From a virus (taxonomy: Duplodnaviria > Caudoviricetes), in IMG/VR virus record IMGVR_UViG_3300033475_000011, positions 16,752 to 80,751 of that record: DNA of 64,000 nt; one strand, written 5' to 3'. The notes under the pieces are model-generated. The model searched no databases. It was not told the origin of the DNA and worked only from the letters and a program-made list of their open reading frames with translations. Shown in pieces: positions 928 through 43,209 of this stretch (position 1 is its first letter; each line of letters starts with the position of its first letter). The translations under genes were made by a program, and so were the position numbers.

Positions 928-1133
928 CTGAAGACGAGAAGCGCGAGGTCCTCGGGAAATACCTCGAGCGCCTGGCTGCCGAACTACGGCATGCACGCTG
1001 GGAGAAGATCGAATTCGAGGTCGATGAGGACAACTGTCTGCGTGAAGATCCGTTCACGCTCGACCTCGTTGACACGGGTGACAGGGACATCAAGATCAGC
1101 ATGAAGCTTCGGGGGGCGACCGACCGTGGATGA
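924..1133 (+). CDS. hypothetical protein
   Basis: ATGA-coupled to the upstream gene, 69 aa. Confidence 0.6.
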   Translation: MTEDEKREVLGKYLERLAAELRHARWEKIEFEVDEDNCLREDPFTLDLVDTGDRDIKISMKLRGATDRG

Positions 1134-1437
1134 CCTGATCGCGTTCCTGCGGGCACGAGTGGCCGAGGACAAGCAGGCGGCCGAAGAACTGTGGCTCCCA
1201 GCTGAACTCATGGACACCGTTGCCGACACCAAGCGCGTGCTGGCGGAGGTGGACTCCAAGAGGAGAATCGTCGAGCACGTTGTGGATTCGATAGCAGGTT
1301 GGGACGCGGACGCCGATGAAGGACCGACTGACCGGGCTGACGCGAACTGCGCGATCACCGACCTGCGACACGTGCTGAAGCTGCTCGCTCTGCCCGACGC
1401 TGGGCATCCGGATTACCAGGAAGGCTGGCGTCCGTGA
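1126..1437 (+). CDS. DUF6221-like protein
   Basis: MDDLIAFLRARVAED..VLAEVDSKRRIV..LKLLALP..HPDYQEGWRP pattern. Confidence 0.7.
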   Translation: MDDLIAFLRARVAEDKQAAEELWLPAELMDTVADTKRVLAEVDSKRRIVEHVVDSIAGWDADADEGPTDRADANCAITDLRHVLKLLALPDAGHPDYQEGWRP

Positions 1438-7643: not shown

Positions 7644-8717
7644 ATGACGCTGTCGGTGAACCCTTCTGCACCCCTGCGTATCTGGATGTGGCTTGCCGAT
7701 AACAGTGGGTGTGGATGACTCGGCTACTACCGTTGCATCCTCCCCGGCCACGCCCTCGTTCAACGGGGGCATCTGGTGGCGATGGATGAGCGCATGCCCG
7801 AACGCATCCAAGCCGGCGAAGACGTAGACGTGATCGTCGCCCAACGCACGTGTATGCCCGGGCCGACCCAACTGTGGCAGCGCTTGGCCCGCGAGGGCAA
7901 CGCCAAGCTCGTGTTCGAGCTCGATGACGACCTGTGGAATGTGGAGCCCCACAACCGGGCCGCACATGAGCTGTATGTGCAGGGTGTGGTGCGGGACCAG
8001 TACGGGCGGGTGACGGATCGGGATGTGCCGATCGGCCAAAACCTGATCGACAACATCACGGTGGCGGACGTGGTCACGGTGTCCACCGAGCCCCTGGCGG
8101 ACCTCGTGTCCCGCTGGAACCCCAACGTCCACGTGCTACCGAACTGCATCCCCTCCTGGCTGCTCGACCAACCCGCGCCGGCACAGGAGTCGGAGCGGGT
8201 CACGATCGGCTGGGGTGGATCCCCGAGTCATACCCGGGACTTCGGCGAACTTGCCCGCCCGTTGAAGCGAGTCCTGCAGCGCTTCGGGGATGCCACCGAG
8301 TTCCACTGCGTCGGACCGGACTACACCAGCCGTGTCGCCTCACACCGCGGCCGCACACGGCACGCCAGGTGGTTCGACGGGGTGGAGGACTACCTCCGCG
8401 GCATCGACTTCCAGGTAGGGCTCGCCCCACTGCGGCCCTCGACGTTCAACGACAGCAAGAGCGATCTCAAGCTGCTGGAACTGGCCGCTCTCGGCATCCC
8501 CGCAATCGTCTCACCCACCGGACCGTACGCCCGCGCTATCGCAGCGGGGGTGCCGGCCCGCACCGCTGCCGACCACAAGGCTTGGGAACGGGAACTCGTC
8601 GACCTCATCCAGTCCCCCGCAGACCGGGAACAGCTCGGCAAAGAAGCCCGCGAGTGGGCCGCGACCCGCGTCATCGACCAGCACGCACGCCTTTGGGAGG
8701 CCGCATATGCCGCGTGA
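7644..8717 (+). CDS. GT-B (GT4-like) glycosyltransferase with an in-frame TGA at 7716-7718 (recoded or pseudogene)
   Basis: GGAGAGG SD plus ATG 7644 in frame with the ORF-track product; N-terminus WLADNSGCG*LGYYRCILP; C-terminus VTIGWGGSPSH..DFQVGLAPL..FNDSKSDLKLLELAALGIP. Confidence 0.75.
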
Positions 8718-8805
8718 CCAGTTGAACGTGGTGGAGTGGTGGTCCCGCTACTACCGGCTCGTAGTGATCTCCCTGGTGGCTTCGGGAACGTGGGTGCCGC
8801 GGTGA
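8707..8805 (+). CDS. 32-aa coupling mini-ORF
   Basis: Overlaps the GT stop and the GTG 8802 of the next gene. Confidence 0.4.
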   Translation: MPRDQLNVVEWWSRYYRLVVISLVASGTWVPR

Positions 8806-9425
8806 TCCGCCACTACTACCACGTGTACGCCGACGGCCAGTGGCGTGAACCGGTGAACGAACACCTCGCCGCGCTCGCCACCATCACGGAACCCATGCAC
8901 CTGACTGTTGGGGTCGTGGGTGCTGAAGAGCACCGGCATGAGGCGATGCGGCACATCTCCTCCTACGCCTGGGTTAACCGCTGGGTCGAAGCCGACACTG
9001 GGTGGGAACAGGTCACGCTCCAACGCCTACGGGACGACCTGGCGTCGGGCCACAACAGCCCCGTCCTGTACGCGCACACGAAGGGCGCTTCGGACTGGTC
9101 CGAGATCAACGTGGTGTGGCGACAGTCCATGATCCGCCACGTCATCGGCAGGTGGCAGGAATGCCTCGAGCATCTCCGAACTGTGGACGCAGTGGGCTGT
9201 CACTGGCTCACCCGCGAGCAGTGGCCCGGGCTGATCACCACCCCGATCTTCGGCGGCAACTTCTGGTGGGCCAACCCCAGTTATCTCGAGACGCTGCCGC
9301 CTTTGCGCTACGACGATCGGTGGCAGGCCGAAGGCTGGATCGGGATCAACAACCCCACCGCCCATGACCTGCTCCCAGGCTGGCCCAGTATCCCCCTGTG
9401 CACGGAGGTCTCCAATGCATGCTGA
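8802..9425 (+). CDS. Putative glycosyltransferase-like protein
   Basis: YAHTKG..FGGNFWWA..R.QAEGWI motifs, recalled from viral glycan-modification proteins; flanked by a GT and an MTase. Confidence 0.5.
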   Translation: MIRHYYHVYADGQWREPVNEHLAALATITEPMHLTVGVVGAEEHRHEAMRHISSYAWVNRWVEADTGWEQVTLQRLRDDLASGHNSPVLYAHTKGASDWSEINVVWRQSMIRHVIGRWQECLEHLRTVDAVGCHWLTREQWPGLITTPIFGGNFWWANPSYLETLPPLRYDDRWQAEGWIGINNPTAHDLLPGWPSIPLCTEVSNAC

Positions 9426-36205: not shown

Positions 36206-36616
36206 TCACATCTTCTTGCCGCACCGGGTGCAGCGCCATTCGCCCTTCACCTCAGAGTAGGTGTGCCCTCCCACACCGGCGGGGCACGAGTCGTCCTCTG
36301 AGACGATCTCGGCGCACACGTCAACAACCTGCTCGCGGGACACCCGGATGCTCGCGTACACGGACGAACCCTTCCGCGCTGTCGACCGGTGCACGTTCGC
36401 CGGGTGGAGCAGTAGTTCGTTCTGCTTCTGTGCCCAGTCGTCTGCTTCTTTGCCGACCTCGAGGAGCTGGGCGCGCATCCAGTCGGCCACCTCATCAGGG
36501 GATTGGAGCACCGCCACGCTGGGCGTCGCCTTCCGCGCTTCCGCCCCTGCCCGCTTCCGGTCCCCATCGCGCACGTCACGTCGCTCTACGTATCCCTGCC
36601 ACATGCGGCACATCAT
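36206..36616 (-). CDS. hypothetical protein with C-terminal Zn ribbon
   Basis: CPAG..H..WRCTRCG; start uncertain. Confidence 0.55.
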   Translation of the reverse strand: MMCRMWQGYVERRDVRDGDRKRAGAEARKATPSVAVLQSPDEVADWMRAQLLEVGKEADDWAQKQNELLLHPANVHRSTARKGSSVYASIRVSREQVVDVCAEIVSEDDSCPAGVGGHTYSEVKGEWRCTRCGKKM

Positions 36617-36678
36617 CCCGTGCCGCGCTGAGGTGGTCAACGCCGCGGTCGACAGATGGGGCGTGTCGGAGGCGGCGG

Positions 36679-36706
36679 TCACAACATAATCTGTATTATG
36701 ATTGTG
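36679..36706. promoter_or_regulatory. dif-like tyrosine-recombinase site overlapping the thg1-xer promoter
   Basis: TCACAACATAA-TCTGTA-TTATGATTGTG (11-6-11 with CATAA/TTATG inner motifs); contains TATGAT -10. Confidence 0.6.
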
Positions 36707-36743
36707 GTTGTAAAACAGAGTTTTGGATCTTGAGGAGATGGCG

Positions 36744-37514
36744 ATGCGTGACGCGCTAGGCGATCGCATGAAGGAGCAATACGAGAACCGCACCAGATAT
36801 CTACTCCCGCGTCGCACCTACTCGGTGATCCGGCTCGACGGTAAGGCGTTCCACACCTACACCCGTGGTCTGCAACGCCCGTACGACCAGCAGCTCATGG
36901 ACGACATGGCCGCTACTGCTCGCTTCCTGTGCGAGACCATCCAGGGCGTCGCGCTGGCGTACACCCAGTCAGACGAGATAAGCATCCTGACCGTCGACTT
37001 CGGCACCCCGAAGACCCAAGCATGGTTTGACGGGAACGTGCAGAAGGTCGTGTCGATATCGGCGTCGATGGCCACCGCGAAGTTCAACGCGCTCCGCCCT
37101 GGCAAGCTGGCGTACTTCGATTCGCGGGTGTTCACCATCCCCGATCCCGTTGAGGTCGTGAACTACCTCATCTGGCGACAGAAGGACGCCACTCGCAACT
37201 CCATCTCTATGGCCGCTCAGTCCCAGTTCTCGGCGAAGCAGCTCCATGGCAAGTCCTCCAGTGAGATGCAGGACATGCTGTGGTCGGAGCACGGGATCAA
37301 CTGGAATGACTACGATCCAAGGTTCAAGCGCGGGACCGTGGTCTATCCAGAGCGGGTGATCGGGTCCGTAGAGTACGTCGACAAGCGAACTGGCGATACG
37401 AGGACTGCCGACAACGTTGAGCGCAGGGTGTGGACCATCGACGCGGCACCTATCTTCACACGCGACGCTGACTTCCTAGCCTCCTACCTACCGCAGGCCA
37501 CGGTGGCGGCGTGA
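36744..37514 (+). CDS. thg1: Thg1-like (tRNA-His guanylyltransferase family) 3'-5' polymerase
   Basis: LGDRMK.YE, IRLDGKAFHTYT, YTQSDEISIL, FDSRVF, YLIWRQKDATRNS. Confidence 0.92.
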   Translation: MRDALGDRMKEQYENRTRYLLPRRTYSVIRLDGKAFHTYTRGLQRPYDQQLMDDMAATARFLCETIQGVALAYTQSDEISILTVDFGTPKTQAWFDGNVQKVVSISASMATAKFNALRPGKLAYFDSRVFTIPDPVEVVNYLIWRQKDATRNSISMAAQSQFSAKQLHGKSSSEMQDMLWSEHGINWNDYDPRFKRGTVVYPERVIGSVEYVDKRTGDTRTADNVERRVWTIDAAPIFTRDADFLASYLPQATVAA

Positions 37515-38590
37515 CCAGCCTCGTCCCCACCTCTCCGGTTCCCGCGCCAGGTGGCGATGAGGACGGCTGGCGCGACACTCTCCAGCTCGTCGGGCAGTGG
37601 CTTGTCGAGTACAGCGGCAACAGCCGCGCCACCTATGCCGACGCCATCGGCTGGCCCTACACCGCCACCGGCAAATGGCGCGGATACGGCGCAGTCCGGC
37701 ACTCCCTAGGCTGGCTGTCCTGGTGCTACACCCACAGTTTGCACGTCTTCGACGCCAAACGCCTACATGTCCTCGCCTGGGTCGATGAACTCAACCATTC
37801 GCGCCACCCTGACACCGGGAAACCGCTTTCGAAGCGGTCCCGCGCACACATGGTCGCGACCGCCTCAAGCTTCTACACGTGGTGCATGCGGGAGGGGCAC
37901 ACCGAAGCCAACCCCGTGTCGCTCGTTGACCGGAAGAAGCAGGGACTACGGACCAGCAAGGACAAGTCCCCCACCCGTTCCCTGTCCCGCCGCGAGGCGC
38001 ACGCGATGATCCGCGCAGCCGACGCCGATCCTGTCGAGGCGGTACGAGCGAGGACCGCGGCACTGATCGCGCTTCTCTTCGAGGTCGGCCCCCGGGTTTC
38101 CGAAGTATGCAATGCCACCCTCGCTGACATGTACGTGCAAGACGGCCACCGCGTCCTACACGTCGAACTGAAGGGGAAGAAAGACCACGAGTATGCACTA
38201 CCGGATCCGGTGTGCCGACGTATCGACGCGTACCTAGCATCGCGCCGCGACATGGACTTGCTGCCCGCGCGACGTGGCCAGGTCAACCACGCGACCTCGC
38301 CACTCTTCGCCACCGCGACAGGGAACCCGATCAGCCGGACCGAGGTGTGGACACTGATCAACCGTATTGCGAAGCTAGCCGGCATCGACCAGCCGGAGAC
38401 CGTCCACCCGCACGTTGGCCGCCACACCTACATCACCGAAGCGCGCCGTCAGGGACGACAAACCGCTGACATTCAAGCTTCGGTCGGGCACGAGTTCGCT
38501 TCCACCACGGATCGGTATGGGCTGCACATCATCAATCTGGAGAAGAGCCCGGCCTACGGTGTCGCTGCCGCGTTCGAGGAGGACGAATAG
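37511..38590 (+). CDS. XerC/D-like tyrosine recombinase (no arm-binding domain)
   Basis: GPRVSE (R), LKGK (K), HPHVGRH (H-x-x-R), VGHE, TDRYG (Y). Confidence 0.9.
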   Translation: MTSLVPTSPVPAPGGDEDGWRDTLQLVGQWLVEYSGNSRATYADAIGWPYTATGKWRGYGAVRHSLGWLSWCYTHSLHVFDAKRLHVLAWVDELNHSRHPDTGKPLSKRSRAHMVATASSFYTWCMREGHTEANPVSLVDRKKQGLRTSKDKSPTRSLSRREAHAMIRAADADPVEAVRARTAALIALLFEVGPRVSEVCNATLADMYVQDGHRVLHVELKGKKDHEYALPDPVCRRIDAYLASRRDMDLLPARRGQVNHATSPLFATATGNPISRTEVWTLINRIAKLAGIDQPETVHPHVGRHTYITEARRQGRQTADIQASVGHEFASTTDRYGLHIINLEKSPAYGVAAAFEEDE

Positions 38591-41664: not shown

Positions 41665-41788
41665 GGCGGTCTCCTTGTTGTTGGCTTCGCCGGTTCGTCG
41701 CCGAGGAGGGTGAGGGTGTTACGAACGGGGCTGCCAGTTCTCCCATTAACGTCCCACTTTGGGGCCATATTGGGACCGATCTACACCC

Positions 41789-41830
41789 ACGTAGACCTAA
41801 GTTGCATTCGTGAACCCCAACGTAGACCTA
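41789..41830. repeat. Direct repeat, probable arm-type or accessory site of attP
   Basis: ACGTAGACCTA at 41789-41799 and 41820-41830. Confidence 0.5.
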
Positions 41831-41862
41831 CGTGCGCCAACGATTCTTTTCACTAGTGGATG

Positions 41863-41900
41863 AACCGAAGGGTTGTTGGTTCGAGTCCAACCGGGGGAGC
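41863..41900 (+). other. attP core = 3' half of a tRNA, probably tRNA-Asn
   Basis: AACCGAAGGGTT-GTTGG-TTCGAGT-CCAAC-CGGGGGA-GC: T-arm, acceptor strand complementary to TCCCC.., discriminator G; no 5' half present. Confidence 0.8.
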
Positions 41901-41967: not shown

Positions 41968-43209
41968 CTACCCACCTTCAGCAGCCCCGGACTCCCCCAC
42001 CATGCCCTCCAACGCGGACGCCGCCACGTCGTTCGCCGCGAACTTCTTCCTGTAGTGACGCTCCACCACCGCCACCGTGTTGCCCAACTGGTCGGCGATC
42101 ATGGTGGTCGGCAACCCGGCCTCCTTCAACACGTCGGTCACCGTCTTGCGCCACACGTGTGACGTGATGCCCGGGTAGCCGATCTCCACGAACGCCTCCT
42201 GCAACCGGTTGATCACAGTCGACGGATCCAGCCACCGGCCCTTGTTTGACGGGAAGATCGCCCCACCCCCCGATGCCAGCTTCAGGCGCTGCCACGTCGG
42301 AACAGACCACTCCGGCACCCGCAGATCCAGTTCGGGCTCGCCACTCTTCCGGAGCGGTTCCCGCACGATCCCCTCACCGGTGACCCGAACCAGGTGGTAG
42401 CGGACCAGCACCCGCCGGTTCACGGGATCGATGTCGTCGCCGTCGAGGGCGAGGAGTTCCCCGATGCGCACACCGGTGGAGAGGGCACAGTCATGCACGT
42501 CCGGGAGTTTCTTCCACACCCTGGCGCGGCCCCCGAGACTGCGTCCGCGCTTGTCGTACTGTTTGCGCTCGGCCAGGGCGATGAGCTTGGCCTTCACGTC
42601 GGCACGCTCGGTCGCGGTGAGTGCCCGCACCTCCTTCTTCTCCCCCGCAACGAGCCGGCCGACCGACTTCACCGGGTTGATCCGCATCGCCTGGTTACGG
42701 ATCGCATAAGCGCAGATACCGGACAGCACGGCCCGAACCGAGTGGGCTGAGGAGTAGCTGCGTTCATCCCGCGCGCGCTGGATTAGCCTGTCGAAGCTGC
42801 TGGGCATGTGTTCGGCCTCGCGGGCCAGGAGTTCCCCGATGGCGGGTTTGACCCAGTTCCGCACATAGCCCCCGTACATGCGGACGCTACTTTTGGCCAT
42901 GCCGCCCTGGTTGGCGACACGGGTAACCTCAGCAAGCCACAGGTCCGCGATCGTGGACATCCGGGTGTCGCCGTTGATTGCCCCGGAGGTAGCTTCGTTC
43001 GCGAGGATCGTCATGCGATTCTTCAGCGCGTTGACGGCTTTGGTTTTGGTGGGGCCGGTGCGGCGAACCTCTTTGCGGCTGCCGTCGGCGATCCGCATGT
43101 AGGCGCGGGCCTCCCAGCGGGTGTAGGTGGTGCCGTCCCGTTTGTGTCGGGTTTCGGAGCGGGTGGTGATCTCCCCGTAGCTTCCGATCGGGGTTGGTGG
43201 CCTCGCCAT
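41968..43209 (-). CDS. int: Tyrosine integrase with N-terminal arm-binding domain
   Basis: MARPPTPIGSYG..WEARAY; GVRIGE, SHVWRK, LGN, ERHY; adjacent to attP. Confidence 0.92.
   Translation of the reverse strand: MARPPTPIGSYGEITTRSETRHKRDGTTYTRWEARAYMRIADGSRKEVRRTGPTKTKAVNALKNRMTILANEATSGAINGDTRMSTIADLWLAEVTRVANQGGMAKSSVRMYGGYVRNWVKPAIGELLAREAEHMPSSFDRLIQRARDERSYSSAHSVRAVLSGICAYAIRNQAMRINPVKSVGRLVAGEKKEVRALTATERADVKAKLIALAERKQYDKRGRSLGGRARVWKKLPDVHDCALSTGVRIGELLALDGDDIDPVNRRVLVRYHLVRVTGEGIVREPLRKSGEPELDLRVPEWSVPTWQRLKLASGGGAIFPSNKGRWLDPSTVINRLQEAFVEIGYPGITSHVWRKTVTDVLKEAGLPTTMIADQLGNTVAVVERHYRKKFAANDVAASALEGMVGESGAAEGG

Follow-up and report, generated by a model that had tools for sequence, protein, structure and literature searches.

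What does a 28-bp site that resembles the dif site of bacterial chromosomes do in a phage that already carries an integrase and an attP? The site lies in a 64-kb stretch of DNA, called the window below, which is the right-hand part of an 80.7-kb IMG/VR virus record (IMGVR_UViG_3300033475_000011; listed there as linear, with an estimated completeness of about 88%) from a soil actinomycete phage. It stands ahead of an operon in which a gene for a Thg1-like protein (TLP) is followed by a gene for a small tyrosine recombinase. From the comparison of related loci, we regard it as highly probable that this 28-bp element is the cognate site of the recombinase, and we propose, with moderate confidence, that the two together form a self-contained module which would resolve multimers of a circular genome.

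The Site and the Recombinase

The elements of the locus, with their positions and strands in the window, are as follows.

36679–36706, no strand: dif-like core site of 28 bp with an 11-6-11 layout, read from the sequence and recurring as a motif in relatives
36707–36743, plus strand: operon leader with GAGGAG, resembling a ribosome-binding site, at 36732–36737; from alignment with the related locus L004, the promoter being from consensus only
36744–37514, plus strand: Thg1-like protein of the bacterial TLP type (Pfam Thg1, 2.7e-26; Thg1C, 2.2e-08)
37511–38590, plus strand: Xer/Cre-type two-domain tyrosine recombinase of 359 amino acids (PF00589, 2.8e-23)

The left arm TCACAACATAA (36679–36689) and the right arm TTATGATTGTG (36696–36706) enclose the centre TCTGTA (36690–36695), and the inner motif CATAA-N6-TTATG spans 36685–36700, all within an AT-rich gap that has a minus-strand gene on one side and the plus-strand operon on the other. 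The layout, letters and coordinates proposed by an earlier sequence-only reading were correct when the sequence was read again. Its description of the arms as near-symmetric holds for the inner CATAA/TTATG but is too strong for the whole site: in strict register 6 of the 11 arm positions are symmetric, namely the inner CATAA and one more, while on the right side the outer CACAA is shifted by 1 nt. Judged on the window alone, where 17 of 100 shuffles matched the palindrome pattern with at most two mismatches, the palindrome is not significant and may be due to chance; its significance comes from comparative data.

What kind of enzyme is encoded downstream? The protein scores 83 bits against PF00589 (cut-off 27.1) and thus belongs to the tyrosine recombinase superfamily. 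The earlier claim that it is catalytically intact stands at the residue level: R195, K221, R304 and Y336 are invariant in 44 homologues, among which H301 and H327 reach a conservation of 90% or more. Among NCBIfam models XerD, XerC and XerA rank at the top, and the scores fall below every Xer equivalog cut-off, with 113 and 106 bits (cut-offs 329.6 and 335) for the pair of XerC and XerD equivalog models (TIGR02224 and TIGR02225), of which XerD matches best, and 58 bits for the XerS model (cut-off 267). Within the PDB, E. coli XerD (1a0p, 1.4e-24) is closest by sequence. An AlphaFold model built with the 44-sequence family alignment (mean pLDDT 89) consists of a core-binding and a catalytic domain without an arm-binding domain, and Foldseek places XerA, XerH-difH, XerD and Cre-lox at the top, with full-length matches to XerH, XerA and Cre. 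From its fold, the recombinase is predicted to be a simple Xer/Cre-type enzyme; it is an orthologue of no named Xer.

Conservation of the Site Among Relatives

Does the site travel together with the recombinase? The recombinase family was taken as 47 cluster representatives (P0002–P0048), the window protein included. Relatives are 42–77% identical and the next match falls to 36%, so that the family is sharply bounded. They come from Pseudonocardiaceae genomes (Umezawaea, Saccharothrix and a metagenome-assembled genome, MAG), from 97–100-kb IMG/VR phages and from metagenome contigs, and this Xer/Cre-type family of actinomycete phages, prophages and phage-plasmids is previously undescribed. Fifteen loci, each designated below by L and a number, have enough upstream DNA for comparison of the site. 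In every one of them CATAA-N6-TTATG heads the operon that holds the recombinase (12 exact, two with one mismatch and one with two), from 48 bp to 6.5 kb upstream of the recombinase and with constant polarity of the spacer. Judging from base composition, we would expect about 10^-3 matches per 13-kb locus by chance. Three host genomes (10.7, 7.6 and 4.2 Mb) contain exactly one copy of the motif each, always in the recombinase operon, and the reversed control pattern has no match in the same three genomes.

The way in which the site varies is also to be noted. Its spacer is always 6 bp long and asymmetric; TCTGTA is shared by the two deep clades of the tree, and TCTTGG, CCTGGC and TCTATA are among its variants. 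Within the arms, the five inner bases are nearly invariant, while the outer six differ by lineage with both sides changing together: TCCCCT/AGGGGA in three loci, TCAGTA/TACTGA in the plasmid pAmyja1 of Amycolatopsis japonica, where the arms are perfect over 13 bp, and CCCAT/ATGGG in L043. These co-varying outer arms yield perfect or 10/11 palindromes, and their variants track the recombinase tree. Such compensatory change of the arms around a fixed spacer has, as far as can be judged from sequences, the look of a symmetric core site to which a tyrosine recombinase binds as a dimer. In a comparison of 11 loci that took in 6 kb to each side, no protein other than the recombinase was common to all of them, which makes a separate co-inherited regulator unlikely.

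Might the element be an operator or promoter only, at which the recombinase acts as repressor or some different regulator binds, with no strand exchange at all? Such a role would suit a site that is always at the start of the operon and not at a set distance from the recombinase gene, and it would suit the promoter-like letters of the site, because the inner CATAAT/ATTATG halves resemble -10 hexamers on both strands. In addition, pairwise alignment with L004 shows that the site and about 40 bp downstream, reaching over the leader, are conserved as one block and the flanking DNA is not. A consensus promoter scan gave promoter-like sites on the minus strand only, among them TTTACA-17-GATTAT at 36714–36686, which overlaps the site; on the plus strand the -10-like hexamers TATTAT (36694–36699) and TATGAT (36697–36702) have no -35, and the overlap of the site with the -10 of the operon, as first described, is a prediction from consensus only. 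A strict asymmetric 6-bp spacer between co-varying 11-bp arms is, on the other hand, the anatomy of a tyrosine-recombinase core site, and the inner motif is that of dif sites. Besides, no second regulator is conserved along with the site, phage and host genomes have one site each, which is unlike typical operators of host or phage regulators, and all the catalytic residues are kept over 42–77% identity, which points to selection on catalysis. Taken together, a role as operator or promoter only is improbable. An operator of a host transcription factor was rejected as well, because there is one site per 4–11 Mb genome.

Autoregulation through a recombination site is nevertheless plausible, because the site is always in the promoter region of the recombinase's own operon, and an occupied site would probably repress that operon.

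Apart from the site itself, a second motif, ACA(G/C)TGTTAC(C), is seen about 15–25 bp downstream of it in four loci (approximately L002:5966–5985, L022:5160–5180, L024:5185–5205 and L034:6995–7012) and is absent from the window. It could be a leader RNA, an accessory site or a promoter element.

Circular Relatives and a Possible Mechanism

Where are such recombinases found outside phage particles and chromosomes? pAmyja1 is a complete circular plasmid of 92.5 kb with genes for terminase, portal, tail tube, tape measure and lysozyme, and is regarded as a phage-plasmid because phage structural and lysis genes lie on a circular plasmid. Its only tyrosine recombinase is a member of the family (41% identity over 96% of the length), and its single site lies at the head of the recombinase operon. 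The structural module of pAmyja1 differs from that of the window, as no homologue of the window's portal protein is found there. More distant relatives (34–37% identity) are encoded on circular plasmids of Verrucosispora and Pseudonocardia, with nearby inverted-repeat sites that have a 6-bp spacer and ATAA/TTAT-type inner bases (L039:3794–3817 and L040:4724–4747). This suggests a wider superfamily of recombinase-site modules in actinomycete plasmids and phages.

No second copy of the site was found in the window, in the whole record, in pAmyja1 or in the three host genomes, and there are no extra half-sites within 400 bp of the site. An inversion switch was rejected because of this lack of a second copy. 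A hairpin telomere resolvase was also rejected, since the 6-bp centre is non-palindromic, the protein is of the small Xer type and pAmyja1 is circular.

In the multimer-resolution module that we propose, two recombinase monomers would bind the inverted 11-bp arms (T-N5-CATAA), and Tyr336 would serve to cleave where the arms meet the asymmetric 6-bp centre. Two identical sites in a dimeric or multimeric circular phage genome could then recombine to give monomers, and the recombinase sitting on the site in the promoter region would repress its own operon. The Thg1-like gene would stand outside this mechanism, occupying a cargo slot and being translated just ahead of the recombinase. Binding, strand exchange, the role in multimer resolution and autoregulation are all predictions from the co-conservation, the co-varying arms, the fold and the circular relatives.

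A Cre/lox-like resolution of a circular state had been among the suggestions of the sequence-only reading, and it is favoured by pAmyja1, by the plasmid relatives and by the single site; its circular part is seen in the relatives only. The window's phage is represented by a non-integrated record with an intact attP, whereas its relative pAmyja1 is a circular extrachromosomal prophage. Several observations weigh against multimer resolution. The window's phage holds an integrase together with that attP, so that the plasmid state is a matter of its relatives; no partition genes were found among those open reading frames (ORFs) of the window that were scanned, which were not all of its ORFs; and neither accessory sites nor a topological filter were found by which resolution would be favoured over fusion. 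The right arm in the window is imperfect owing to its 1-nt offset, and the window copy may be weak. Moreover, the site lies 1–6.5 kb from the gene in three loci, at the start of the operon, which fits a promoter or operator at least equally well.

Integrase, attP and Host dif

The conventional integration system of the phage consists of two features.

41968–43209, minus strand: tyrosine integrase of 413 amino acids, arm-type (PF00589, 5.2e-10; PHROG 1, 2.5e-32)
About 41863–41900, plus strand: attP core of this integrase, matching the 3′ part of tRNA-Asn genes in Pseudonocardiaceae genomes

A separate arm-type integrase with its attP, 4–5 kb away from the dif-like site, is thus confirmed. Just left of the attP core, in the region 41780–41835, a direct repeat ACGTAGACCTA occurs twice (about 41790–41800 and 41821–41831), and the two copies probably serve the integrase as arm-type sites. 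Like the window, L004 and two complete IMG/VR genomes encode a second tyrosine recombinase of integrase size, and L022 encodes a large serine recombinase, as does the left part of the window's record. As most phage members of the recombinase family also hold a conventional integrase, to call the Xer-like enzyme and its site a second recombination system is apt, and the arrangement recurs across the lineage.

Is this system then another means of integration and excision, with the site as its attP core and the Xer-like enzyme inserting the phage at a host site that has the central bases in common, possibly dif? Arthrobacter and Gordonia phages encode the nearest relatives in phage databases, small tyrosine recombinases with about 28% identity that are annotated as integrases, and an attP usually adjoins its int gene. 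The host side can be compared in Saccharothrix hoggarensis, where a candidate dif, CCGATAA TCTACA TTATGTTAAGT, is located at G002:C105:7060–7087; the dif of Frankia (alni) quoted in PMC3025954 matches it at 25 of 28 positions. This candidate dif has the same layout and inner bases as the phage site in the same genome, with ATAA-TCT..A-TTATG in common, but it differs from the phage site at all the outer arm positions and at two of the six central bases. In the genomes of Umezawaea (in a 320-kb contig), Saccharothrix and the MAG, each embedded copy retains a single intact site complete with its own two arms, and a second, hybrid copy is absent genome-wide, from which it follows that these elements were not inserted via the dif-like site. 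In addition, some family members are on circular plasmids that have no other tyrosine recombinase, most phage members already hold an arm-type or serine integrase, and a simple symmetric site without arm sites would provide no directional control. A second integration and excision system is therefore an unlikely role for the site, and integration at the host dif, one of the routes considered at first, is unlikely in particular. Neither does the element resemble an integrative mobile element exploiting Xer (IMEX), which has no recombinase of its own, an attP mimicking the host dif and dif-like junctions on both sides of the prophage. It had also been suggested that the site is one end of a small mobile cassette, and for this no second site was found.

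A tyrosine recombinase gene lies about 1.1 kb from the Saccharothrix candidate dif (8144–8812, locus L033).

The Thg1-Like Gene as Cargo

Why is a Thg1-like gene placed between the site and the recombinase? The domain scores of its product, 92.5 bits for Thg1 and 34.8 bits for Thg1C, place it in the Thg1/TLP family, and it matches PHROG 4717 at 3.7e-84. Compared with BtTLP of Bacillus thuringiensis (PDB 4kgk; 3e-57 over about 200 residues), the RxDG and SDE carboxylate/metal-binding motifs are aligned, and its predicted role is templated 3′-5′ nucleotide addition of the TLP type. The likely start is the ATG at 36744, behind the GAGGAG of the leader. The GTG start of the recombinase overlaps the TGA stop of this gene (GTGA, 37511–37514), just as the sequence-only reading had it.

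That reading had also taken the two genes as a coupled pair. Among the 15 loci the gene preceding the recombinase in the slot between it and the site is variable, as follows.

Thg1-like gene: 1 locus (the window only)
DUF6221: 3 loci
RNA ligase (PF09414): 1 locus
270-amino-acid protein without a known family: 1 locus
55-amino-acid protein without a known family: 1 locus
Several genes: 3 loci
Nothing: 5 loci

Thus, a conserved thg1-recombinase pair is not found. In L022 a thg1 gene 74% identical to that of the window lies 2 kb downstream of the recombinase, uncoupled, and the closest relative of the recombinase (77% identity), for which only 93 bp of upstream DNA are present, has a different C-terminus there. 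No functional tie between the Thg1-like protein and the recombinase was found in the locus comparison, by which thg1 is variable, interchangeable cargo whose coupling to the recombinase is incidental. A tempting false lead is thereby removed. What is conserved across loci is the NTGA overlap of the recombinase start with whichever gene precedes it (37511–37514 in the window and 6001–6004 in L004, L005, L006, L022, L023 and L024), and this suggests low, coupled translation of the recombinase.

It might be imagined that the site with its promoter and the recombinase make up a dedicated, recombinase-serviced cargo slot of large Pseudonocardiaceae phages, into which promoterless genes are inserted or exchanged like in an integron and are then co-regulated; a Thg1-like polymerase or an RNA ligase in such a slot might counter tRNA-cutting defences. 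We consider such a slot very unlikely, and likewise the corresponding idea that site and recombinase are a device for capturing accessory genes such as those for Thg1 and RNA ligase. Between site and recombinase there are indeed from none to five or more genes, the last of which is always in NTGA overlap with the recombinase start. Nonetheless, no attC-like second site stands beside any cargo, there being one site per genome, and the score of the recombinase against integron-integrase models, 28.6 bits, is far under the cut-off of 265, so that an integron of the IntI/attI/attC kind is not recognized here. Ordinary phage mosaicism at gene boundaries accounts for the pattern.

Several other observations concern the cargo genes. 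DUF6221 was rejected as an obligatory partner because it adjoins the recombinase in some loci only. Its homologue in the window is far from the locus, about 36 kb from the recombinase (1126–1434, plus strand), and is 36% identical to the recombinase-coupled DUF6221 of L004. Near the recombinases of relatives, genes for Thg1, a TROVE/Ro-like protein, RNA ligase (PF09414), Macro and NUDIX proteins recur. These genes of RNA-repair, NUDIX and Macro types (L022:9072–9875, L022:1067–2719, L024:5219–6004, L023:4188–4676 and L023:7247–7741) may be an accessory or anti-defence set.

The Surrounding Phage Genome

The late region of the window is of the siphovirus type, with genes for terminase, portal, major head protein, tape measure and endolysin, and the early region is of the DnaB type. 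No close DNA relative of the stretch was found in the phage collection, and relatives were found neither by a single-sequence scan of viral contigs nor by a profile scan of metagenome contigs. Three further genes may be listed, one beside the site and two in the part of the record left of the window.

36206–36622, minus strand: divergent gene for about 138 amino acids (start uncertain) with a Cys-rich C-terminus; the codon-position GC fits the minus frame
L038:860–2311, plus strand, left of the window: large serine recombinase of 483 amino acids with Resolvase and Recombinase domains
L038:9026–11242, minus strand, left of the window: protein of 738 amino acids with a weak FtsK/SpoIIIE match

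The divergent gene shares one intergenic region with the dif-like site, and the Cys-rich C-terminus of its product resembles a zinc ribbon; no Pfam, PHROG or NCBIfam match was found for it. It was rejected as a partner of the recombinase, because it has no homologue in the other loci. With the serine recombinase, besides the Xer-like enzyme and the integrase, the record encodes three recombinases. The 738-amino-acid protein could be TraB-like, and the record perhaps has functions like those of plasmids or of actinomycete integrative and conjugative elements (AICEs).

Comparison with Known Systems

Why do temperate phages of about 100 kb that have an integrase keep a resolution-type system? A possible answer is that they spend part of their life as circular episomes. 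From a practical point of view, a 28-bp target can now be predicted for each member of the recombinase family, and the arms come in at least four natural variants. Should these pairs be active, they would offer high-GC actinomycetes a ready set of orthogonal tools of the lox type.

How does this module compare with systems already described? Single Xer recombinases that are genetically linked to a dif site as one module are known as XerS/difSL and XerH/difH (PMC2731167). The present system is like them in that one Xer-type enzyme is linked to its own dif-like site, in 15 of 15 loci, and in that inverted arms surround a central hexanucleotide, here with a constant 6 bp and co-varying arms. Unlike the present module, which is borne by phages, prophages or plasmids, XerS/difSL of streptococci and lactococci and XerH/difH of epsilon-proteobacteria are chromosomal systems of the replication terminus that resolve chromosome dimers in an FtsK-dependent manner. 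The phage site is like the dif of XerC/XerD, both the E. coli dif quoted in the sequence-only reading and the Frankia dif, in its 11-6-11 layout and in having ATAA/TTATG as inner bases. XerCD is, on the other hand, a pair of paralogues acting on distinct arms, while there is a single phage-borne enzyme here, with palindromic arms in several relatives, and the outer arms of the phage site are unrelated to those of the candidate host dif, which lies elsewhere.

For the Thg1-like protein the known counterpart is BtTLP, from which it differs in being phage-encoded and in having a C-terminal tail of about 50 residues past the alignment.

The position of the site has its own precedents. In TnpI-IRS of Tn4430 and Tn5401 and in ResD-rfsF of the F plasmid, the resolution site is directly upstream of the tyrosine-recombinase operon, and the promoter is controlled by binding there as well. 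Accessory repeats, which belong to those sites, were not found at the present site, and their enzymes have no close sequence relationship to the present recombinase.

The phage-plasmid precedent is Cre/loxP of P1. As in P1, a two-domain enzyme is encoded by a phage, a palindromic site with an asymmetric spacer lies near its gene, and the relative pAmyja1 is a circular plasmid prophage. The differences from Cre/loxP are the 11-6-11 layout with dif-type inner bases instead of 13-8-13, the identity to Cre of about 15% in the fold alignment, and the integrase and attP which the window's phage holds in addition. With these differences in mind, the site and its recombinase are best described, as judged from their sequences, as a probable resolution module of the simple Xer/Cre type such as is known from phage-plasmids and plasmids.

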